This document shows positions 5,570-39,200 of a DNA stretch of 42,288 bases, in pieces. The notes beneath the pieces are model-generated. The model searched no databases. It was not told the DNA's origin and was given only the letters and a program-made list of their open reading frames with translations. The position numbers and the translations under genes were made by a program. This DNA comes from a virus (lineage: Duplodnaviria; Heunggongvirae; Uroviricota; Caudoviricetes). The stretch is from IMG/VR virus record IMGVR_UViG_2778260993_000007, positions 1 to 42,288 of that record. The stretch is one strand, 5' to 3'. Position 1 is the first letter of the stretch, and each line of letters starts with the position of its first letter.

Positions 5570-6154
5570 TTATTGTTTGTTTTTTTCGTTCTGGTTGATG
5601 ACAAATTCAATGTAACTTTCGATCTTTGCCTTCTCTGTTTCAGGTAACAATGCGTAGCGCGAGCGGTCATAGTTGATAGTTGCAGGGTCATGCGGATGAA
5701 TCAGTAGTTCATATCCGTGACGCCCGAATGCAGATGCAACATTCTCCAGGGTGGAAATGGAAACGCTGACCTCATTGTTTAACAGGCGGCTTATTGTCAC
5801 CTGGGCGACGCCGGATGCGCGGTGAAGTTTTCCCTGAGTTGAAAGGTCGCGGCTTTCACTCATCCAGCGTTCCAGGTTGTGAGCTGCCAGCTGACCAATG
5901 TCGCTTGGTCCGACAGGCTGAAAACCTTCCTGAGAAAGCGAGCGATCGATATCAAGCCAGTTACGGGGTTTATTGGCGGCAGCTTCGATTTTTCGCGCAA
6001 CCTGGTCGCCGATAACCTTCTTGCCAAGAGCCCAGCGGTTTACCAGATTTGCCTGAGTTCCAAGTTTTTCTGCCATCCGCGTCTGAACACCATTGAATTC
6101 ACGGTCGATCAAGTCGTTGAGATTTTGCCTGCGGACGTCCTGGATACTTTTCAT
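5570..6154 (-). CDS. Prophage repressor (CI-like), tandem HTH, no S24 autopeptidase domain
   Basis: 194 aa; N-terminal XRE-type HTH (QTRMAEKLGTQANLVNRWALGKK) and a second HTH-like segment; divergent from Cro-like gene with operator repeats between; no Ala-Gly/Ser-Lys peptidase motifs seen. Confidence 0.7.
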   Translation of the reverse strand: MKSIQDVRRQNLNDLIDREFNGVQTRMAEKLGTQANLVNRWALGKKVIGDQVARKIEAAANKPRNWLDIDRSLSQEGFQPVGPSDIGQLAAHNLERWMSESRDLSTQGKLHRASGVAQVTISRLLNNEVSVSISTLENVASAFGRHGYELLIHPHDPATINYDRSRYALLPETEKAKIESYIEFVINQNEKNKQ

Positions 6155-13039: not shown

Positions 13040-13635
13040 TGATGTCTGCTGAACCTAAAACCTATAAACGCAAATCAACGCAATTTAAGCCACTAACAGC
13101 AATGCAGGAGGCTTATTGCCAGTCATACATCAAAACGCCTGAAAACCAGACTCAGGCAGCGATTAACGCAGGATTCTCCCCAAATACAGCGGCAGTTAAA
13201 GCCAGTGTCATGATGCGCGATGAACGCATTCAAAAACGGATTGCCGAGTTGATGGAGGAGCGCAACAAACGAATGCGCGTCAGTGCTGATTACGTTCTCA
13301 TGCGCCTGGTGGAGATCGACCAGATGGACGTGATCGACATCCTCAACGACGATGGGAGCCTTAAACCAATCCGTGAGTGGCCTAAAATCTGGCGCACTAC
13401 GCTTAGTGGCTTTGATCTGTCATCGACCATCATGAACATGAACGAGGATTCGATAGAGACAATCCTCAAAAAAATTAAATGGCCTGACAAGGTGAAGAAC
13501 CTTGAGCTGATTGGTAAGCATGTTGATGTCAACGCGTTCAAAGAACGTCTGGATGTTAATGTGAATGTGACAATTGCTGATCGCATAGCAGCAGCCAGGA
13601 AGCGACTCAAAGAACGTCAGGATGGTAATCAGTGA
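13039..13635 (+). CDS. Terminase small subunit
   Basis: Start refined to MMSAEPK; conserved small-terminase segment (AMQEAYCQSYIKTPENQTQAAINAGFSP); directly upstream of large terminase. Confidence 0.7.
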   Translation: MMSAEPKTYKRKSTQFKPLTAMQEAYCQSYIKTPENQTQAAINAGFSPNTAAVKASVMMRDERIQKRIAELMEERNKRMRVSADYVLMRLVEIDQMDVIDILNDDGSLKPIREWPKIWRTTLSGFDLSSTIMNMNEDSIETILKKIKWPDKVKNLELIGKHVDVNAFKERLDVNVNVTIADRIAAARKRLKERQDGNQ

Positions 13636-15107
13636 CAGATACAGCGTTATCTCCTGAAGAGCAGTTGATCGAGGATATTGCAGGGTTCACTCACGATCCG
13701 CTTGGCTATGCCCTCTATGCGTTCCCGTGGGGGGAAGAGGGGACTGAACTGGCACATGCTACCGGCCCACGTCAGTGGCAGGCCGATGCGTTCCGAGAGA
13801 TACGTGATCACCTGCAGAATCCAGAGGCGCGCTATCAGCCGCTTATGCTGGCACGCGCTTCGGGTCACGGTATTGGTAAATCAGCATTCATCTCAATGCT
13901 GATCAACTGGGGCATGTCCACTTGCGAGGATTGTAAGGTCGTGGTGACTGCCAACACCGACAACCAGCTACGAACGAAGACCTGGCCGGAAATTATCAAG
14001 TGGTCGAACCTTGCTATCACGAAAGACTGGTTTACCTGTACCGCTACCGCGATGTACAGCAATGACCCTGGGCACGACAAGCGGTGGCGGGCTGACGCAA
14101 TACCCTGGTCTGAGCACAACACTGAGGCATTCGCCGGACTACACAACGAGCGCAAACGCATCATCGTGGTATTCGATGAAGCGTCGAACATTGCGGATCT
14201 GGTGTGGGAAGTTGCCGAGGGTGCGCTAACGGACGAAGACACTGAGATTATCTGGGTGGCGTTCGGAAACCCGACGCGTAATACCGGACGTTTCCGCGAA
14301 TGTTTCCGCAAATATAAACACCGCTGGAAAACTGCGCAGATTGACAGCCGGACGGTGGAAGGCACCAACAAACAGCAGTTGCAGAAATGGGTTGATGACT
14401 ACGGGGAAGACAGCGACTTCGTTAAAATCCGTGTGCGCGGCATATTCCCTGATGCATCTGAATTGCAGTTTATCCCTACCGGTCTTACTGACGAGGCAAT
14501 GAAACGGGTGGTCACCGCTGCGCAGGTTGCACATGCTCCGGTGATAATCGGCGTTGACCCGGCATACTCAGGCGTTGATGACGCGGTGATATACCTGCGG
14601 CAGGGGCTGCACAGTAAGGTGCTGTGGACCGGCAACAAGACCACTGACGATCTGATTATGGCAAAGCGTATCGCTGACTTTGAAGACCAGTATCAGGCTG
14701 ACGCGGTGTTCATCGACTTCGGCTACGGTACCGGTCTGAAGTCAATCGGTGACGGCTGGGGTCGTACATGGCAACTTGTTCCGTTCGGCGGCGCGTCTAC
14801 TGACCCGCAGATGCTCAATAAGCGCGGGGAGATGTTCAATGCATGCAAGACATGGCTGAGGCTCGGCGGGATGCTGGATGACCAGGAAACAGCGGACGAC
14901 CTGTCGGCGGCAGAGTACAAAGTTCGCGTGGACGGTAAAATCGTTATCGAACCGAAGGAAGATATCAAGGAGCGGCTTGGGCGTTCGCCGGGTAAAGGCG
15001 ATGCGCTACTGCTGACGTTTGCTTTCCCGGTGTCGAAGCGCCTGCGACTTCCCGGGCAGCAGAACCAGCAAGGCAAGGCGCTTACCGAGTACGATCCCTA
15101 TGCTTAA
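13632..15107 (+). CDS. Terminase large subunit
   Basis: 491 aa; ATPase Walker-A-like motif (ARASGHGIGKS) and C-terminal nuclease region; coupled to small subunit. Confidence 0.9.
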   Translation: MTDTALSPEEQLIEDIAGFTHDPLGYALYAFPWGEEGTELAHATGPRQWQADAFREIRDHLQNPEARYQPLMLARASGHGIGKSAFISMLINWGMSTCEDCKVVVTANTDNQLRTKTWPEIIKWSNLAITKDWFTCTATAMYSNDPGHDKRWRADAIPWSEHNTEAFAGLHNERKRIIVVFDEASNIADLVWEVAEGALTDEDTEIIWVAFGNPTRNTGRFRECFRKYKHRWKTAQIDSRTVEGTNKQQLQKWVDDYGEDSDFVKIRVRGIFPDASELQFIPTGLTDEAMKRVVTAAQVAHAPVIIGVDPAYSGVDDAVIYLRQGLHSKVLWTGNKTTDDLIMAKRIADFEDQYQADAVFIDFGYGTGLKSIGDGWGRTWQLVPFGGASTDPQMLNKRGEMFNACKTWLRLGGMLDDQETADDLSAAEYKVRVDGKIVIEPKEDIKERLGRSPGKGDALLLTFAFPVSKRLRLPGQQNQQGKALTEYDPYA

Positions 15108-15767: not shown

Positions 15768-15844
15768 TGGCGTGGCATGCAGGATTCGAACCTGCGACCA
15801 ACCGCTTAGAAGGCGATTGCTCTGTCCAACTGAGCTAATGCCAC
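15768..15844 (-). tRNA. tRNA-Arg (anticodon UCU)
   Basis: 77-nt cloverleaf on minus strand: acceptor GTGGCAT/ATGCCAC, D-arm GCTC...GAGC, anticodon loop CTTCTAA, T-arm GCAGGTTCGAATCCTGC, 3' GCCA; resembles but is not identical to E. coli argU. Confidence 0.8.
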
Positions 15845-16491: not shown

Positions 16492-18171
16492 ATGGCGGAA
16501 ACAACTAAAGAGCGATTGAACAAACAGTTCGCACAACTTGAAAGCGAGCGTCAGTCGTTCGAGCCGCACTGGCGCGAGTTGAGTGATTACATCAACCCGC
16601 GTGGTTCCCGCTTTCTGACTTCAGAGGTCAACCGTAACGATCGACGCAATACACGCATTATTGATTCGACCGGGACTATGGCGGCGCGCACTCTCGCCAG
16701 CGGCATGATGTCAGGCATCACAAGCCCCGCGCGTCCGTGGTTTCGCCTGGCTACGCCAGATCCTGAAATGATGGATTATGGCCCTGTTAAGTTGTGGCTT
16801 GAGGCGGTGCAGAACCGCATGAACGATATGTTCAATAAGTCGAATCTCTACCAGTCTCTTCCGCAGTTATACGGAAGCCTCGGCACATACAGCACTGGTG
16901 CAATGGCAGTGCTGGAGGATGACGAGGACATCATTCGCACAATGCCATTCCCGATAGGCAGTTACTACCTGGCTAACTCACCTCGTGGCAGTGTTGACAC
17001 CTGTTTTCGCAAGTTCTCTATGACTGTTCGTCAGCTTGTTCAGGAGTTCGGGCTAAATAACGTCAGCGAATCCGTAAAAAGCATGTGGGAAAGCGGCACC
17101 TACGAGAAGTGGATCGAAGTGATGCATTCGGTTTACCCGAACATTGACCGCGATACATCGAAGCTGGATAGCAAGAACAAGCCATTCAAATCGGTTTATT
17201 ACGAGGTTGGCGGCGATAACGACAAGTTGTTGCGTGAGTCCGGATTCGATGAGTTTCCAATTATGGCTCCGCGCTGGGAAGTTAACGGCGAAGATGTTTA
17301 TGGATCATCATGCCCGGGTATGCTGGCGCTTGGACCTGTTAAGGCATTGCAGCTTCTCCAGAAGCGCAAGTCGCAGTTGATTGATAAAGCCACCAATCCG
17401 CCGATGGTTGCTCCGACTTCCCTCAAGAATCAGCGCGCCTCCCTTCTTCCTGGCGACATCACGTATATCGATCAGATTACTGGTCAGGATGGTTTCAGGC
17501 CTGCTTATCTGGTTAACCCCAGTACAGCAGATCTGGTGGCAGACATTCAGGACACTCGCCAAATCATTAACAGCGCCTACTTTGTCGATCTGTTCATGAT
17601 GTTGCAGAACATCAATACCCGCTCGATGCCTGTTGAAGCGGTGATCGAAATGAAAGAAGAAAAACTTCTGATGTTGGGGCCGGTTCTGGAGCGTCTGAAC
17701 GACGAATGTCTTAATCCTCTCATTGACCGCGCTTTCTCTATGATGGTGCGTAAAAACATGCTGCCGCCACCGCCTGACGCGATGGAAGGCATGCCCCTGA
17801 AGGTCGAATACATTTCCGTCATGGCTCAGGCGCAGAAGTCTATCGGCCTGTCCAGTCTGGCGTCCACGGTTAACTTCATTGGTCAACTTGCGCAAGCGAA
17901 ACCAGAAGCTCTCGACAAACTCAACGTTGATCAGGCGATCGATGCATTCGCTGATATGTCCGGAGTGTCTCCAACCGTCATTGTTCCGCAGGAACAGGTT
18001 GAGCAGGCTCGCCAGCAACGGGCACAGCAACAACAGCAGCAACAAATGATGGCGATGGGGATGGCGGCGGCACAGGGTGCCAAGACGCTAAGTGAAGCTA
18101 AAACTTCGGATCCGAGTGTTTTGTCAGCTATGGCGAATGCAGTTAGTGGTCAGGGTGGGCAATCACAATGA
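16492..18171 (+). CDS. Portal (head-to-tail connector) protein, T7 gp8-like
   Basis: 559 aa; C-terminal Gln/Met-rich tail (QQQQQQQMMAMGMAAAQG) as in T7 gp8; position after terminase. Confidence 0.8.
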   Translation: MAETTKERLNKQFAQLESERQSFEPHWRELSDYINPRGSRFLTSEVNRNDRRNTRIIDSTGTMAARTLASGMMSGITSPARPWFRLATPDPEMMDYGPVKLWLEAVQNRMNDMFNKSNLYQSLPQLYGSLGTYSTGAMAVLEDDEDIIRTMPFPIGSYYLANSPRGSVDTCFRKFSMTVRQLVQEFGLNNVSESVKSMWESGTYEKWIEVMHSVYPNIDRDTSKLDSKNKPFKSVYYEVGGDNDKLLRESGFDEFPIMAPRWEVNGEDVYGSSCPGMLALGPVKALQLLQKRKSQLIDKATNPPMVAPTSLKNQRASLLPGDITYIDQITGQDGFRPAYLVNPSTADLVADIQDTRQIINSAYFVDLFMMLQNINTRSMPVEAVIEMKEEKLLMLGPVLERLNDECLNPLIDRAFSMMVRKNMLPPPPDAMEGMPLKVEYISVMAQAQKSIGLSSLASTVNFIGQLAQAKPEALDKLNVDQAIDAFADMSGVSPTVIVPQEQVEQARQQRAQQQQQQQMMAMGMAAAQGAKTLSEAKTSDPSVLSAMANAVSGQGGQSQ

Positions 18172-30913: not shown

Positions 30914-31441
30914 TCAATGGCTGTTTATGGCTTCTAAAGAATCTTCTGCACTTATCGGCAAAGCAATAGCATCCTTGTTAGATGTGCTATTGCTTTCCAG
31001 AACGATGGAAATCCAATCCTCTTGGTTTTTATTAATTGTGCTGACAGCCATGATAGCATTCAAATCGTTTTTATATATTTCTGATCGAATAAGACCTTTC
31101 CTGAATAATTTAGTTAAGCTTTCCGCTATCGACATCGCACGAATGCTAACTTTACTAAGCTCAATGACGTCACTACCTGCGACTTTAGCGTGTTGAGAAA
31201 GAGCCATCAAAGCTATATGCGAAAATGTTTCTTCTTTTGAAAAACCATTACTTAAAGACAGGAGTGATACACTAGCTCCGTATGGGGTGAGCTTATATCC
31301 TGATACATTCAATGCATGCTCTACAAAGATAAGAGCATCAGTTGTAGAAGCATGGATATTGTTACTTTTTTGTTTTTTCGCAATAAATAAAAAAACAAAA
31401 TTAATAATTACGATGCCGACAATGATTAAGAAAACTTCCAT
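30914..31441 (-). CDS. Membrane-anchored hypothetical protein (accessory)
   Basis: 175 aa; N-terminal TM helix MEVFLIIVGIVIINFVFLFIA; AT-rich; promoter, operator and first codons duplicated in inverted orientation at 35151..35200. Confidence 0.6.
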   Translation of the reverse strand: MEVFLIIVGIVIINFVFLFIAKKQKSNNIHASTTDALIFVEHALNVSGYKLTPYGASVSLLSLSNGFSKEETFSHIALMALSQHAKVAGSDVIELSKVSIRAMSIAESLTKLFRKGLIRSEIYKNDLNAIMAVSTINKNQEDWISIVLESNSTSNKDAIALPISAEDSLEAINSH

Positions 31442-31501: not shown

Positions 31502-31900
31502 TTAAGTGTAAACCTCCTGCTGTTCAGTGGTGATTTTACCCGGCAACACCTTTTTAGCTTTGCGTGGGTTAACTACATGGCCTTTAGTCCAGTAATCGTA
31601 GAGCACATCGTCACACTCTTCCTGATACTGGATTACCTTGTCGCGGATTTCAGGGCGTACTTTGTTTGGACTGATGCTGTTCAACCAAGCTGCCAATTTT
31701 CGTAAAGCCATACAAATCATGGCTTGCACCCCACCGGCAGAAGGTATGGTGATTTCCACCATACCCTTCGAGAAGCGTTGAGAAATCTTCTTATGTTGAG
31801 ATTTCCAGTCTAGCCCCATTCCCTCAACGATAGGTTTCATTGGGGTATACGGTTCACCGTTGTGATTGACAACATAAAGATCTGCGCCGTGGAATGGCAC
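31502..31900 (-). CDS. Putative antirepressor-like protein (P22-antirepressor N-terminal-like domain)
   Basis: 132 aa; segment GEPYTPMKPIVEGMGLDWKSQ...GGVQAM resembles N-terminal domains of phage antirepressors; weak RBS, start uncertain. Confidence 0.45.
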   Translation of the reverse strand: MPFHGADLYVVNHNGEPYTPMKPIVEGMGLDWKSQHKKISQRFSKGMVEITIPSAGGVQAMICMALRKLAAWLNSISPNKVRPEIRDKVIQYQEECDDVLYDYWTKGHVVNPRKAKKVLPGKITTEQQEVYT

Positions 31901-31994: not shown

Positions 31995-32328
31995 TTTACA
32001 CACCTTAACCAAATACGGTTGATTTTAATATTTCTAAGCGCTTATCATTACCTTTTCGGTAAATTTACATCGCATTCCTCTTGTGCCATAGTAATCGGGC
32101 ACTGGCAAAATCCAGTGCCGGGATTGGTCTCCCGGATTACTACAGAGGCACATATGCCGCATAAGCGGTTTTTTTATGTGTAAAGCGCACCTATTCTATG
32201 GTGGGCTGTGTGGGGGCACCGAAAGGTGCGCCGGGTCCTTTGTAGCCGGTAAGACCAACTCTGCACAGTTCACCACCATCTGATTGGTCTCAGCGGTGGT
32301 GATTAACCTAACTACAAAGGTGATCGCC
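31995..32328. repeat. Inverted repeat IR-2, left copy (antirepressor leader)
   Basis: About 330 bp, roughly 85-90 percent identical to the reverse complement of 34790..35125. Confidence 0.65.
32048..32062. promoter_or_regulatory. Operator-like site in leader of BRO-type antirepressor gene
   Basis: TTACC-TTTTC-GGTAA adjacent to putative -35 TTTACA. Confidence 0.5.
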
Positions 32329-33021
32329 ATGAATACCAAACCTTCCATCTTTTCCTTTGAGTCATCCTGCCAGATCCGTATGTTCATGATTGACGGAGAA
32401 CCTTGGTTTGTCACCAAAGATGTGTGCAATGCTTTGAATATTGATGTTACACAAGCGAGAAAACTTGATAAAAAAGGCTGGAACAAAAAGGGGCTGTATT
32501 CAATACAGACCCCTGGTGGAATACAAGAACTATCCATCGTTTCAGAATCAGGTCTCTACATCCTTATTCTGCGTTGCAAAGAGGCAATGACTGAGGGAAC
32601 GAGAGCATTCAGATTTCTTGAATGGGTTACAGGTGAGGTTCTTCCTCAGATCCGCCGCACCGGAAGTTACATTAAAAACTCGCTCCCGCAGGAAGAACGC
32701 ATAAAGATGGTTGCCGACCAGGTAGCCAACGCCACGGCGTCAGCAGTAATGCAGGCGATGAAGATAGAGAACAAAACCTACAGCGCCCCGCTGAAGCCCG
32801 GCTACCGCAGTTTGATTCACTCGCCGTCTGGTGTTCTCGGCCTGACGGAGAACTCACTGCTGATGAATCTGCTGAACCAGTTACAGGAAGACGGGCACGA
32901 CGTATCGGGCGCGGCGGCGGAGCTGACCACCATGTTCTGCTACATCGTCGGTGTGAGCAAATGCCTGCGTGATATCCAGACGCACGCGGAGTACATCAAC
33001 GACAAGGCAGGGTTCTTCTGA
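32329..33021 (+). CDS. Antirepressor, BRO-N domain plus shared C-terminal domain
   Basis: Start refined to MNTKPSIF (AAGGTGA RBS); BRO-N-like N-terminus (FMIDGEPWFVTKDVCNALN...GEVLPQIRRTGSY); C-terminal about 80 aa identical to C-terminus of 34133..34789. Confidence 0.7.
   Translation: MNTKPSIFSFESSCQIRMFMIDGEPWFVTKDVCNALNIDVTQARKLDKKGWNKKGLYSIQTPGGIQELSIVSESGLYILILRCKEAMTEGTRAFRFLEWVTGEVLPQIRRTGSYIKNSLPQEERIKMVADQVANATASAVMQAMKIENKTYSAPLKPGYRSLIHSPSGVLGLTENSLLMNLLNQLQEDGHDVSGAAAELTTMFCYIVGVSKCLRDIQTHAEYINDKAGFF
32770..33021. repeat. Inverted repeat IR-3, left copy (shared antirepressor C-domain coding region)
   Basis: About 250 bp nearly identical to reverse complement of 34133..34385; the few differences seen are synonymous. 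Confidence 0.7.
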
Positions 33022-33059
33022 CAGAACGGCGGCACAGGGATGTGCAAAACGGAACTATC

Positions 33060-33071: not shown

Positions 33072-33096
33072 AGGCCGCTTTCGCGGCCTTGTTTTT
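33072..33096 (+). terminator. Terminator after BRO-type antirepressor gene
   Basis: AGGCCGC-TTTC-GCGGCCT followed by TGTTTTT. Confidence 0.65.
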
Positions 33097-33256
33097 AACG
33101 AATGCCACCGCCGCCCGGGCTGGAATCCGCAGAACGCCCACCGCAGCGGGAGCCGTCAGCGGCAGTATCGCTGTCGTGCTGACAACGACCGGCAAAGGCC
33201 TGAGTTGAAGCTACCAGAGACAACAAAACGAACAGTGCAGCAAATGCTTTTTTCAT
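33095..33256 (-). CDS. Possible small secreted peptide
   Basis: Signal-peptide-like N-terminus MKKAFAALFVLLSLVASTQAFA; but Gly/Ser-rich remainder overlaps a GC-rich terminator region; may be non-coding. Confidence 0.2.
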   Translation of the reverse strand: MKKAFAALFVLLSLVASTQAFAGRCQHDSDTAADGSRCGGRSADSSPGGGGIR

Positions 33257-33325
33257 TGTGAAATTTCCATCTATAAGCCACCTCAATGTGGCGTCAATGA
33301 GTGTAGTACTGACTTTTGTTTCGTC

Positions 33326-33351
33326 CACAAAAAAGCCCGCGCTGCGGGCTT
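33326..33351 (-). terminator. Terminator after gene 33355..33987
   Basis: Minus-strand AGCCCGC-AGC-GCGGGCT followed by TTTTTTG directly after stop codon. Confidence 0.7.
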
Positions 33352-33354
33352 CTG

Positions 33355-33987
33355 TTAATGCAGTTTATCTTTGCTTATAACCAGTAGTCTGTGGGTATGC
33401 ACATCTTTATCACTGCCCCAACAGAAATCAGCCCACTGGCTATAGAAATCATCCCATGATGTCATGAAGCTAAGAGGTCTATCTTCTTCAGAGCCATCTG
33501 AAACGTATACATTATATCCTGGGGTGTTTATAGCCCAAGAAATCATTCTTTCCCAGAATCTTCTCCCATCGATTGTTTGTTGCTCATCAGATACAACGAT
33601 CGCATATTGCTCTAGGAAGAACTGAAAAAAAATCTGAGGCAAACCATGAACAGCACGGTCATGAATAACATTAGGCGTACGCCATACCATGATCTGCGTA
33701 CATGTTCTTTTGGCTTCGACGATATCTTCCCGAAAGATTAACTTAACCGCATACACCGTTTCTGGAGTATCGCTGGTAGTAATCATTCTGTAATGATCGC
33801 CATTACAAGATTTTACAAGGCGATAACCATAAGGTGTTGTGAATCCCGGAAGAACGAAATCAACCACACCTTTCGCTAAGTAGCTTTCGGTGTGACTAGT
33901 GTTCTTCTCAGACATGTTCAGTTTTCTATCGAAATCTGCTTCTGGGATAATGTATGGCATCGCTTTTCTTGTTGTATTTGTTCTCAT
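33355..33987 (-). CDS. Hypothetical protein at centre of antirepressor island
   Basis: 210 aa; own operator-like site upstream (about 34047..34061) and strong terminator directly after stop; no recognised domain. Confidence 0.55.
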   Translation of the reverse strand: MRTNTTRKAMPYIIPEADFDRKLNMSEKNTSHTESYLAKGVVDFVLPGFTTPYGYRLVKSCNGDHYRMITTSDTPETVYAVKLIFREDIVEAKRTCTQIMVWRTPNVIHDRAVHGLPQIFFQFFLEQYAIVVSDEQQTIDGRRFWERMISWAINTPGYNVYVSDGSEEDRPLSFMTSWDDFYSQWADFCWGSDKDVHTHRLLVISKDKLH

Positions 33988-34046
33988 TTCGTCCTCCCAT
34001 GTTTGGCTACAGGACGCGTTTTGAAGGGAAGATTAAAAATGCTTTC

Positions 34047-34061
34047 TTACCCTTGAGGTAA
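34047..34061. promoter_or_regulatory. Operator-like site upstream of gene 33355..33987
   Basis: TTACC-CTTGA-GGTAA in the 145-bp gap between AntA-type gene stop and next start. Confidence 0.5.
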
Positions 34062-34132
34062 TAGTACGCTATTCACCCCCAGTCTGCAATCTGTACAGAA
34101 TTATTTAAAGGCACGTCCCTGTGCCGCCGCCG

Positions 34133-34385
34133 TCAGAAGAACCCTGCCTTGTCGTTGATGTATTCCGCGTGCGTCTGGATATCACGCAGGCATTTGCTCA
34201 CACCAACGATGTAGCAAAACATGGTTGTCAGCTCCGCCGCCGCGCCCGATACATCGTGCCCGTCTTCCTGCAACTGGTTCAGCAAATTCATCAGCAGTGA
34301 GTTCTCCGTCAGGCCGAGAACACCAGACGGCGAATGAATCAGGCTACGGTAGCCGGGCTTCAGTGGGGCGCTGTATTCTTTTTTG
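34133..34385. repeat. Inverted repeat IR-3, right copy
   Basis: See left copy. Confidence 0.7.
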
Positions 34386-34789
34386 TCTTCCAGCTTGATC
34401 GCCTCCATAATGGCGGGCATGAAGCCTGACAAGACCTTCTCCACTTTTGTTTCTTGTTGTCTTAAACGTTTCTCGCATTCAATGAAGTAGCGTCGCACCT
34501 GGCGACCTTTTTCGTTACGCTCGACCATCGCCAGCTCTTTGGCTGTATCAAGGGTGAGGTGGTACTCTTTGCGGTTGTGGCCGCCTCTACCAGATGTTTG
34601 CTTTCCCAAATTGGAAAGCAAAATATAGTCTTGATTTTCAATGAATTCGTATTCTGATATGCGATTTGTAATCCATGCTGCAAACACCTTTTTAACACCT
34701 AAAAAAGCGTGCAGATCGCGGGCATTACAAAGTAGGGCTGTTTCGTTAGATATAGTGCCGTTGAATACGGGGATGAGTTGAGCGTTCAT
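34133..34789 (-). CDS. Antirepressor, AntA/AntB-type N-terminal domain plus shared C-terminal domain
   Basis: 218 aa; AntA-like N-terminus ([34 protein letters not shown]); C-terminal domain identical in protein sequence to that of 32329..33021. Confidence 0.7.
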
Positions 34790-35125
34790 GATGGCGTCTC
34801 CACTTAGCGAATTACATCACCACCGCTGAGACCAATCAGATGGTGGTGAACTGAACGGAGTTGGTCTTACCGGCCTAAGTGGTACCGGCGTCCTTTCGGA
34901 CCCCCATTCAGCCCACCATAATTCTGGCATGACTGTGCTATACGCATAAAAAAACCACGTCTGGCGTGGTATGCGCCACTTAGTAATCCGGGAGACCAAT
35001 CCCGGCACTGGATTTTGCCAGTGCCCGATTACTATGGCACAAGAGGAGTGCAATGTAAATTTACCGCAAAGGTAATGATAAACGCGAAGAAATATTAAAA
35101 TCAACCGTATTTGGTTGATTGCGTT
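34790..35125. repeat. Inverted repeat IR-2, right copy (antirepressor leader)
   Basis: See left copy; ends at the AntA-type gene start codon. Confidence 0.65.
35061..35075. promoter_or_regulatory. Operator-like site in leader of AntA-type antirepressor gene
   Basis: TTACC-GCAAA-GGTAA; inverted counterpart of the site at 32048. Confidence 0.5.
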
Positions 35126-35150: not shown

Positions 35151-35200
35151 ATATTACCTTTAAGGTAATGTTATTGTGAGGAAAAGCAATGGAAGTTTTC
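35151..35200. repeat. Inverted repeat IR-1, right copy
   Basis: Reverse complement of 31432..31481 by direct comparison. Confidence 0.7.
35154..35168. promoter_or_regulatory. Operator-like site upstream of membrane/zinc-ribbon gene 35189
   Basis: TTACC-TTTAA-GGTAA, 21 bp before start codon. Confidence 0.5.
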
Positions 35201-35917
35201 TGGATAGTTGTTGGTGTGGTTGCGGTGATTATTTACGTTATCAACCAGAACAAGACTAAGATCTCTGATCGTACGGTCGTTAATTATAACAAAACGATAA
35301 AGACCGAAGATGGGGAGATAACGATTAATCGTACACAGGTGATAGAACACACCTCTACTCAGTTTCAAAAAACTGGAGGTAATGCGCCTAATATTTCCGC
35401 ACCTCCTGCTTATGATAGTGCGGTAATCCAGACATATTATAAACAGCAGGAGTTAGCAAAAGAGAGGCAACTGATTCAGCCAAAGCCGTTTACAGCTGAG
35501 CTTCCACCTGGAGTGTCAATGCGTCCGGCATATCATGGAAGATTCCCTGGTGATGACATATCGTCTCAGTCATCTAAAAAAGCACCTCAGGCAGTATCAG
35601 AGCCAGCAAGAATACCTTCTGTATCGCCGCCAAAAGAAGAATCAGCTAACAGAGTTTCAAGTGGTAGCAAGCAGTGCTTGCGATGCAGAATAAACCTACC
35701 ATATGAAAAATTCAGGAAATCGTCAAAAAATCCAGATGGATTGACTAAGTGGTGTGCAAGGTGTCTCGATGGCCCAAAGAATACACGCCATATGAAGTGG
35801 TGCCCAATTTGTAATGTCCGCAGAAAACGAACAAGCTTTTACCCTAATAATCAAAATGCGGATGGCTTAATGGCATGGTGCAAAACGTGCTGGGACGAGC
35901 ACAAAGCGAAACGATAG
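35189..35917 (+). CDS. Membrane-anchored protein with tandem C-terminal zinc-ribbon repeats
   Basis: 242 aa; N-terminal TM helix MEVFWIVVGVVAVIIYVI; two about 35-aa repeats each with CxxC...DGL..WCxxC. Confidence 0.6.
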   Translation: MEVFWIVVGVVAVIIYVINQNKTKISDRTVVNYNKTIKTEDGEITINRTQVIEHTSTQFQKTGGNAPNISAPPAYDSAVIQTYYKQQELAKERQLIQPKPFTAELPPGVSMRPAYHGRFPGDDISSQSSKKAPQAVSEPARIPSVSPPKEESANRVSSGSKQCLRCRINLPYEKFRKSSKNPDGLTKWCARCLDGPKNTRHMKWCPICNVRRKRTSFYPNNQNADGLMAWCKTCWDEHKAKR

Positions 35918-35939: not shown

Positions 35940-36197
35940 TTACCGGGTTTGTTTTCGTAATTGTTCGGCACAATAGTCGAGATGTGTTTGCAGATCCCGC
36001 ATAGACATCTGTGAGCTGGTGACGTAGTTAATCAGTGCAGTCAGTTCGGCAAGTGGGCCATCGACATTAAATCCATCCTTATCGAGCTCCCGGAGTAATT
36101 TCATCAAGTGCGATCCCTCCACCAGTGATCTGACGCCTCCCGGCGTGTGAATCCTTTCGGTAAATCCGTCTTCCAGTGGATAGTGATACTGCTGCAT
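35940..36197 (-). CDS. Small protein homologous to the antirepressor C-terminal domain (candidate SOS-induced antirepressor)
   Basis: About 85 aa from ATG with GGAGAAG RBS (track ORF extends to 36215); aligns with the shared antirepressor C-domain (TPGGVRSLVEGSHLMKLLRELDKDGFNVDGPLAELT...MRDLQTHLDY); LexA box immediately upstream. Confidence 0.6.
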   Translation of the reverse strand: MQQYHYPLEDGFTERIHTPGGVRSLVEGSHLMKLLRELDKDGFNVDGPLAELTALINYVTSSQMSMRDLQTHLDYCAEQLRKQTR

Positions 36198-36218
36198 CTT
36201 ATCTTCTCCATGCAATAA

Positions 36219-36234
36219 CTGTATAAATATACAG
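36219..36234. promoter_or_regulatory. LexA (SOS) box
   Basis: aaCTGTataaatatACAGta: CTGT-N8-ACAG with AT-rich spacer matching the enterobacterial LexA consensus TACTGTATATATATACAGTA at most positions; about 22 bp upstream of start of minus-strand gene 35940..36197. Confidence 0.65.
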
Positions 36235-36273: not shown

Positions 36274-36288
36274 TCACCTGAAAGGTAA
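36274..36288. promoter_or_regulatory. Operator-like site TCACC-TGAAA-GGTAA upstream of tail fiber gene
   Basis: 9/10 match; in divergent intergenic region between LexA-box gene and tail fiber gene. Confidence 0.45.
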
Positions 36289-36392
36289 TATCTGTTCGTA
36301 TTTATGGGTTGTCTATCCATATATGGTTTTTCAGGTAATAGAATAACCGGATATGCGGCGCAACGGGTGCTGCGACTATCTGGAGATTTAAC

Positions 36393-39097: not shown

Positions 39098-39200
39098 ATG
39101 AAATCGTTTTTTTATGTGTAAAGTTTATCATATATGGTTTACTGTGTATGATATACCCATTTAACTAAGGGCGTATCATGAACATTAAGCGGCGGTTACA

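Follow-up and report, generated by a model that had tools for sequence, protein, structure and literature searches.

The closest described regulatory system is the Rep/Ant switch of the epsilon15-like podoviruses, with the SPC32H Rep (PDB 5d50/5d4z) as an example; according to the epsilon15 record, structure 5d50 is that of the SPC32H repressor, SPC32H being a Salmonella phage. In the epsilon15 RefSeq entry, the motif ATTACC-N5-GGTAAT is annotated as "protein_bind, repressor, lysogeny" at seven positions homologous to those reported here. ZX5, a temperate Uetakevirus that integrates at guaA, encodes a repressor and a Bro-N antirepressor that shift its lysis-lysogeny balance (PMC9782041). A second related arrangement is found in the immI region of P1/P7 (C4 antisense RNA-icd-ant) and in the isrK loci of the Gifsy prophages. 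A third one is the moron, a concept due to Hendrix and Juhala, which designates a promoter, an ORF and a terminator inserted together between conserved genes of temperate phages; in its classical form, a moron is expressed while the prophage is repressed. Finally, Mom of phage Mu is a divergent and tightly regulated phage GNAT with an anti-restriction function, which uses Gly-tRNA instead of acetyl-CoA as donor and modifies adenine in DNA (PMC13219725).

The window, i.e. the whole analyzed stretch of 42,288 nucleotides, has its nearest DNA relatives among Uetakevirus-type prophages of E. coli, for example TL-2011b, and is assigned, from its sequence, to an epsilon15-like (Uetakevirus) E. coli prophage. 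Its Rep protein shares 100% identity with the repressors of phiV10 and vB_EcoP_ZX5. Although it is only 42% identical to the Rep of epsilon15, a comparison of repressor and operator covariation found the same TTACC-N5-GGTAA motif in both phages. This motif occurs in 13 exact copies in the window, compared to 0.01 expected (none of 100 shuffled sequences reaches 13), and in 18 copies if one mismatch is allowed, compared to 0.68 expected. The copies are scattered over the genome and lie on both sides of the Rep gene and ahead of most transcription units, including several lytic ones and those of an antirepressor island (Table 1). The likeness to the Rep/Ant switch thus concerns (i) the homology of Rep, (ii) the operator motif and (iii) its genome-wide layout, to which should be added a small Ant gene and a perfect LexA box upstream of the tailspike gene. 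However, epsilon15 itself is devoid of the 5-kb antirepressor island and of any gene at the position considered below, and one operator of the window is predicted to control an extra cargo gene.

This cargo gene encodes a protein of 210 amino acids, and a sigma-70 promoter matching the consensus at 7 of 12 positions is predicted upstream of it. The final T of its -10 hexamer is also the first T of the operator, a register that recurs at no fewer than eight sites of the window, this one included. Since the -10 hexamer and TTACC share this base, a bound repressor would cover the promoter from -10 to about +8. Membership of a Rep regulon is indicated by an exact TTACC-N5-GGTAA at the promoter and by a cognate repressor gene that the phage itself encodes and that has operators at OL- and OR-like positions. 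To judge by the motif, the site is the general Rep operator of the phage and is not private to this gene. Since it belongs to a phage-wide family of Rep-type operators, the gene would be co-regulated with the lytic regulon, and we predict that it is a member of the Rep regulon, switched off in the lysogen and switched on at infection or after inactivation of Rep. Binding and repression by Rep at this operator, as well as the timing of expression, would follow the same scheme. A control of the gene by LexA was considered and rejected: no LexA box was found upstream of it, and the only perfect box of the island precedes the small Ant gene.

Table 1. Position of the cargo gene, of its regulatory signals and of the related features in the window
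Feature	Position	Strand	Basis or remark
Rep-type operator TTACCCTTGAGGTAA	34047..34061		Motif scan; the window has 13 exact copies, this one included; same motif annotated as repressor binding site in epsilon15
Predicted sigma-70 promoter	34061..34089	-	Prediction: TTGCAG (34089-34084), 17 nt, TACTAT (34066-34061); region conserved in TL-2011b, CE0007a and MS8345
Cargo cassette (5' UTR and gene), swappable	33351..34046	-	blastn breakpoints against three relatives; GC content
Shine-Dalgarno sequence GGGAGGA	33992..33998	-	Read directly from the sequence; 4 nt 5' of the ATG at 33987
210-aa cargo gene, PHROG 1349 family, GNAT-like predicted fold	33355..33987	-	Stop codon (33355-33357) included
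Intrinsic terminator	33329..33351	-	RNA fold: stem GCCCGC/GCGGGC (33335-33349), loop AGC, T6 tail (33334-33329); common to relatives with other cargo
53-aa signal-peptide ORF, downstream of the cargo	33095..33257	-	phrog_14503 "membrane associated protein", 1e-38; belongs to the frame of the slot and not to the cargo
Bro-N::Ant-C antirepressor gene, convergent, left palindrome arm	32284..33021	+	Pfam Bro-N, 2e-13; inverted repeat I1
AntA-N::Ant-C antirepressor gene, upstream neighbor, right palindrome arm	34133..34789	-	Pfam AntA, 4e-26
Near-palindrome arms	32766-33022 / 34132-34388		93% complementary, plus outer arms
Perfect LexA box	36219-36234		Before the small Ant gene
Rep repressor gene (194 aa), presumed trans-acting factor for the operator	5570..6154	-	phmmer to PDB 5d50 "Repressor", E 4e-42
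Operators, downstream side of the Rep gene (OL-like)	5436, 5498		
Operators, upstream side of the Rep gene (OR-like)	6210, 6258		
Operators before the Holliday-junction resolvase gene	8517, 8579		
Operator before the small terminase gene	13007		
Operator before the gp3-like gene	16166		
Operators before antirepressor island genes	31462, 32048, 34047, 35061, 35154		
Operator before the tailspike gene	36274		
Operator before the holin gene	39083		

The ORF is a real gene, as evidenced by 63 full-length homologues (37-100% identity), by the assignment of its product to PHROG 1349 (E 3e-113) and by a confident AlphaFold2 model. Immediately 3' of its stop codon, the terminator is carried by a 66-nt stretch with a folding energy of -19.7 kcal/mol (z = -3.0), a hairpin that a simple consensus terminator scan did not pick up. 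At the other end, only 59 nt (33988-34046) separate the operator from the start codon, which leaves no space for a partner ORF in the cassette.

Comparison with three E. coli relatives (TL-2011b, CE0007a and MS8345) revealed that the gene occupies a cargo slot. Homology in blastn stops at 33350/33351 and restarts at 34047, so that the breakpoints coincide with the outer edge of the terminator and with the gene-proximal edge of the operator. The cargo has a GC content of 41%, compared to 49-51% in its flanks. At the same place, TL-2011b carries a YafO-family toxin gene and a 59-aa ORF, CE0007a carries ORFs of 288 and 69 aa, and MS8345 carries ORFs of 110 and 62 aa. In each of them, these different cargoes are preceded by the operator and the promoter region; the half-sites of the operator are invariant, and its N5 spacers vary (CTTGA, TTTAA or TTTGG). 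On the other side of the slot, the 53-aa ORF is conserved in all the relatives, where it is annotated as WP_000708858.1. The regulatory elements (promoter, operator and terminator) thus stay in place while the cargo changes, which makes them, in this phage lineage, a property of the slot and not of the gene: they frame a swappable cargo slot. The exact cargo was found at 99% identity or more in 93 of 5,426 complete E. coli genomes, and some of the islands that carry it have one arm only, showing that the palindrome is not required; parts of the island are present in roughly 1,300 E. coli genomes. In a search of PADLOC-DB v2, neither the other slot cargo nor the fusion proteins gave a match. 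It can also be observed that the alternative cargo resembles toxin-antitoxin modules, which is as compatible with defence or addiction as with counter-defence.

These results clarify the original prediction, which was made from the sequence of this locus and described an ORF at the center of a palindrome with its own operator and a strong terminator, apparently forming an independently regulated unit. The ORF, the TTACC-N5-GGTAA site upstream of it and the strong terminator are all present, and the arms of a near-palindrome do enclose the gene. Its self-contained character is also borne out by the predicted promoter, the operator, the strong ribosome binding site and the terminator, and the homologues are likewise often followed by terminators and enriched in upstream sites. 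However, the term "independently regulated" is not retained, since the site is the general Rep operator, present in 13 to 18 copies, and the gene would be co-regulated with the lytic regulon. The operator is not the gene's own either, as promoter, operator and terminator are conserved around other cargo in the close relatives and are thus, in this lineage, a property of the slot.

With its predicted autonomous promoter, its ribosome binding site and its terminator, its polymorphism of presence, absence and replacement and its atypical GC content, the 210-aa unit resembles a moron, and the separate promoter and terminator, the replacement polymorphism and the atypical composition by which morons are recognized were all found in it. 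It differs from classical morons in two respects: (i) its promoter bears the operator of the prophage repressor, whereas they are expressed from the repressed prophage, and (ii) its regulatory elements (promoter, operator and terminator) also serve alternative cargo in the E. coli lineage.

The surrounding island also recalls immI. Both antirepressor genes that flank the slot are preceded by matches to the Rfam isrK and C4 antisense RNA families, which makes the island an immI-type region and relates it to the P1/P7 and Gifsy loci. The AntA-N::Ant-C protein shares its C-terminal 80 amino acids with the left-arm protein and is similar there to the small Ant, whose gene lies behind the perfect LexA box. 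These neighboring Ant proteins (two large Ant-domain proteins and a small one) are likely inactivators of Rep. Unlike the P1 immI layout, the 210-aa gene is located downstream of ant, behind a separate promoter and operator, and we know of no counterpart of this gene in P1 immI.

The homologues of the gene are found in very different contexts. In the lambdoid phage LLS, the gene lies at the genome end, after the lysis cassette; in siphovirus-type prophages of Serratia and Leclercia, it lies between the tail chaperone and tape-measure genes, often near Ant and Arc genes; in P1-like plasmids of Citrobacter, it lies between the baseplate genes and sit. Solitary chromosomal copies between housekeeping genes were detected in 17 Enterobacter-group and five Morganella species genomes. 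A strong intrinsic terminator directly follows the homologue in nine of 11 other contexts, including all eight phage or phage-plasmid contexts. Furthermore, among 103 homologous loci, 15 carry a TTACC-N5-GGTAA-type site at most 245 nt upstream, compared to 1.3 expected from the background rate, and these 15 loci correspond to six sequence-independent classes. A search for Rep in the viral contigs where a homologue follows such a site listed 80 matches, all identical and from E. coli. De novo clustering of the neighboring genes did not reveal any recurrent partner gene (194 neighbors in 133 clusters), the commonest neighbor families being Arc and Bro-N. Because the contexts differ, a tblastn search of the proteins neighboring the first loci against 69 genome loci gave almost no matches. 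The search for loci of more distant members covered Enterobacterales.

The copy of LLS, which is 84% identical, is preceded by TACTAT-TTACCCAGAAGGTAA. In this genome, the repressor is unrelated to Rep, and neither a Rep homologue nor any other exact operator site was found. Since LLS keeps the operator without a Rep homologue or regulon, something besides a cis-encoded Rep may read the site; the LLS operator is perhaps a relic, or else it may be read in trans.

Relatives are also present in Agrobacterium phage Atu_ph07, which has a genome of 490 kb, and in Burkholderia phage BCSR5, with a genome of 227 kb; we take both phages to be lytic. In one distant member, a single case, the protein is joined to an SRA_ScoMcrA domain of the kind present in type IV restriction proteins, and its gene comes after a Phd antitoxin gene; in another single case, from a phage-like contig, the gene overlaps, and is operonic with, a gene encoding Acb1 (anti-CBASS). 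A 1,202-aa haemagglutinin-repeat protein is encoded before the Morganella copy, and we considered whether the product could be the immunity protein of a CdiA-type toxin; this was rejected because the C-terminus of the large protein is conserved and non-polymorphic and its gene has a separate terminator.

A profile search of 1.84 billion representatives (clustered at 50% identity) retrieved 918 relatives at E≤1e-3, mostly of about 200 aa. The names given to homologues in their sources are all "hypothetical" or "phage protein", and no mention of the family accessions was found in the literature. The original prediction recognized no domain in the product and proposed a structure-based check. At the sequence level this holds: neither the protein nor a profile of 99 family sequences matched Pfam, NCBIfam, PADLOC or PDB sequences, none of the 99 diverse members matched the Pfam Acetyltransf_* models even at E≤1, and PADLOC-DB v2 gave no match to the protein at E≤0.1. 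However, structure comparison makes the fold class recognizable. AlphaFold2 used with the 99-sequence alignment gave a confident model (pLDDT 91, pTM 0.83), for which Foldseek against BFVD retrieved uncharacterized phage proteins first (one of them from Atu_ph07), then proteins named NAT_SF or acyl-CoA N-acyltransferase. According to this model, the product has a GNAT (acyl-CoA N-acyltransferase)-like fold. The mixed alpha/beta architecture of the GNAT superfamily was thus found without a sequence match to any curated GNAT model, and identity is only 4-14% with superfamily members such as NatD/Naa40 (4ua3), AAC(2') (5us1) and the GNAT-like domain of Rv1916 (8g8k), from which the protein also differs by about 40 extra N-terminal residues and by extra strands.

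Fourteen residues are conserved in the family (N29, Y79, Q98, W102, R103, D134, Q137, T138, G141, F144, W145, Y161, W190 and G191); the polar and aromatic set N29, Y79, Q98, W102, R103, D134, T138, G141, F144 and W145 is strongly conserved. The pyrophosphate-binding loop of motif A, Q/R-x-x-G-x-G/A between beta4 and alpha3, is not recognizable by eye after strand 95-103 or 130-132 in the family alignments. At the start of helix 139-153, T138-x-x-G141-x-x-F144-W145 appears by eye to correspond to the motif B of GNATs, N-x-x-A-x-x-L-Y; with this line-up, the usual catalytic Tyr would be a Trp in the 210-aa protein. Inspected by eye, its sequence shows neither a signal peptide nor a membrane segment. 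The median pI of the family is about 6, and a DNA mimic of the Ocr type was rejected because the family is not acidic.

The explanation that we tentatively prefer, with slightly less than even confidence, is that the gene encodes a Rep-repressed, stand-alone GNAT-like enzyme or ligand-binder that is made on induction or infection and aids lytic development. In this view, the gene is a foreign, low-GC cargo housed in the antirepressor island, in a conserved slot that provides a predicted sigma-70-type promoter, an operator starting at the last base of the -10 hexamer and an intrinsic terminator. In the lysogen, a Rep of the SPC32H/epsilon15 type would occlude the cargo promoter. Transcription would occur when Rep is absent, as in a fresh infection, or when it has been inactivated by the neighboring antirepressors, as in SOS induction. 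The antirepressors that would free the promoter are encoded next to the gene, under the putative control of LexA and of C4 RNA, and the gene would thereby take part in the early/derepression regulon. Its product, probably a cytoplasmic protein of about 24 kDa, would acylate or bind a target of the host or of a competitor, the most plausible role being host takeover or counter-defence. We lean towards a role in lytic growth, given the predicted timing of derepression, the presence of relatives in Atu_ph07 and BCSR5 and the relative that is operonic with the Acb1 gene. However, many homologues are stable chromosomal singletons among housekeeping genes, which argues against a strictly phage-specific role. 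The toxin-like alternatives in the slot and these solitary copies are also compatible with a defence protein, a pseudo-enzyme or a general enzyme.

Among the alternatives, the gene could serve phage exclusion or defence, guarding the lysogen or the induced cell and being fired when the antirepressor of a superinfecting phage or SOS removes Rep. This reading agrees with the hypervariable prophage slot, where the alternatives are a YafO-family toxin module and two two-gene modules, with the fact that several temperate phage backbones, as well as P1-like plasmids, carry the gene as a moron-like unit of its own, and with the distant member that carries the SRA_ScoMcrA fusion after a Phd antitoxin gene. 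However, with a Rep operator covering its promoter the gene is expected to be silent in the lysogen, PADLOC is negative for the protein as well as for the other slot cargo, and relatives occur in two presumably lytic phages and beside an anti-defence gene. We consider a defence function unlikely.

Another reading retains the fold but not the chemistry. Since the canonical acetyl-CoA loop is unrecognizable by eye, the protein may be non-catalytic, a GNAT-like scaffold that would block or sequester a host or phage protein or a small molecule without acyl transfer. However, N29, Y79, Q98, R103, D134 and T138 persist among homologues of about 25% identity, and such a polar conservation points to an active or ligand site more than to an interface co-evolving with varied targets; we regard a purely binding role as improbable.

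A broader view of the preferred enzyme, which we find quite doubtful, is that PHROG 1349 as a whole is an unrecognized, divergent class of GNAT-like enzymes, carried in a portable cassette of promoter, Rep-type operator, gene and terminator and switched on at the loss of the repressor. The enzyme would modify a host defence component, a competitor regulator or a nucleic acid for the benefit of lytic growth, as Mom or AcrVA5 do. If this were true, the orphan operator of LLS would mean that the cassette listens to the Rep of co-resident prophages.

The protein could also be a toxin or a host-killing (kil-like) factor, i.e. a growth-arresting GNAT of the TacT/AtaT type silenced by Rep and not by an antitoxin. 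This is very unlikely, since the cassette contains no antitoxin-like ORF, adjacent or otherwise, the homologues have no recurrent partner, stable solitary copies are carried by the 17 Enterobacter-group and five Morganella species genomes, and GNAT toxins are absent from the best structural matches.

Finally, a Mom-like enzyme modifying phage DNA or RNA during lytic growth and thus evading restriction would fit the predicted lytic-phase expression, the fusion of one family member to a DNA-base-flipping SRA domain and the example of Mom as a divergent, tightly regulated GNAT with a non-CoA donor (PMC13219725), but it appears most improbable given the median pI of about 6 without overall basic charge, the chromosomal singletons and the results against Mom itself (hhalign probability of 0.2% and BLASTP E of 4.9). 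Homology to Mom was rejected on these two values, a weak test because Mom is represented by a single sequence. PHROG 1349 has no detectable sequence relationship with Mom and its genomic context is different; Mom serves only as a precedent for a possible mode of action (PMC13219725).

Taken as a whole, the 210-aa gene is a variant of already-known kinds, namely moron or hotspot cargo and GNAT-fold proteins, and is a candidate for bench tests, not a discovery by itself. This work nevertheless provides a widespread family of "hypothetical" phage proteins with a predicted fold and a regulatory logic. Should the product prove to be an enzyme that acts at induction, the few GNATs known from phage-host conflict would gain a new, divergent member. 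The epsilon15-type Rep operator apparently governs accessory cargo too and not lytic genes alone, and the cargo-exchange slot bounded by this operator and by the terminator is a source for the mining of accessory, defence and counter-defence genes.

The genome-wide family of Rep operators (TTACC-N5-GGTAA, the presumed binding sites of the SPC32H/epsilon15-type repressor) includes 18 sites, distributed over positions 5436-39339 of the window. At least eight of them share a fixed register, the first T of TTACC being the last base of the -10 hexamer, and two pairs (5436/5498 and 8517/8579) have the same spacing of 62 nt. From the perfect LexA box and the neighbouring Rep operator found 5′ of the small Ant gene, this canonical antirepressor appears to be under dual control by LexA and Rep. 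The operators of the tailspike and holin genes have in common the motif CATATATGGTTT, located approximately 35-45 nt downstream of each, and a similar motif, TATGTGGTTTTT, precedes the resolvase gene. These motifs may represent a shared promoter or leader element.

The lambdoid phage LLS carries a copy of the 210-aa cargo gene preceded by a Rep-type operator. This is the sole exact TTACCCAGAAGGTAA site in the LLS genome, where no other was found, and the LLS repressor is unrelated to Rep. Two distant members of the cargo family (PHROG 1349) have telling contexts: (i) one is an SRA_ScoMcrA fusion whose gene overlaps the upstream Phd antitoxin gene and (ii) the other shares an operon with an anti-CBASS gene, Acb1, and has an NAD-dependent DNA ligase gene close by.

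Feature coordinates (window positions unless a locus is named)
Feature	Position	Strand	Remark
Large terminase-like ORF	13632..15107		
Portal/head-tail adaptor-like ORF	16492..18171		
Outermost island gene	30914-31441	-	
P22_AR_N-only ORF	31502-31900	-	132 aa
isrK + C4 antisense RNA set	32099-32280	+	Rfam match
53-aa ORF	33095-33257	-	conserved; signal peptide (MKKAFAALFVLLSLVASTQAFA...)
isrK + C4 antisense RNA set	34839-35024	-	Rfam match
Outermost island gene	35189-35917	+	
Small Ant-like gene	35940..36215	-	85-91 aa
LexA box CTGTATAAATATACAG	36219-36234		perfect; directly 5′ of small Ant-like gene
Rep operator	36274-36288		near-consensus (one mismatch); beside LexA box
CATATATGGTTT, tailspike side	~36320-36335		
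CATATATGGTTT, holin side	~39140-39155		
Rep-type operator TTACCCAGAAGGTAA	L142 (phage LLS) 42053-42067		exact; TACTAT -10; upstream of LLS copy of 210-aa gene
Distant PHROG 1349-family member	L017 5823-7080		
Distant PHROG 1349-family member	L092 907-2024		

The outermost genes of the antirepressor island share an N-terminal membrane segment (MEVF.I.VG.V) that is part of the inverted repeat, and the 242-aa protein of this pair ends in Cys-rich repeats matching endonuclease VII / Lar-like PHROGs. At the outermost-gene position, APEC O18 has a YafO-family toxin gene with a 147-aa ORF ahead of it, an indication of a second variable slot. Since the counterpart of the P22_AR_N-only ORF is flagged in RefSeq relatives as an incomplete antirepressor pseudogene, this ORF is probably a third, truncated antirepressor. 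The 53-aa ORF, a match to phrog_14503 ("membrane associated protein"), occurs in every relative under the accession WP_000708858.1. Judging from its -35-like hexamer TTGACG and its lack of a Rep operator, it may be a moron expressed in the lysogen. Outside the island, a tRNA-Arg gene (anticodon TCT; 15768-15844, minus strand) lies between the large terminase-like and portal/head-tail adaptor-like ORFs.

Rfam matches to the Hfq-binding sRNA isrK and to C4 antisense RNA (61-75 bits, above gathering) were detected directly 5′ of both large antirepressor genes, each arm of the palindrome carrying one such set. These sets are an RNA control layer of the P1/P7 immI type within an epsilon15-like phage, the likeness to immI consisting of isrK/C4 RNA elements ahead of the two large antirepressor genes.
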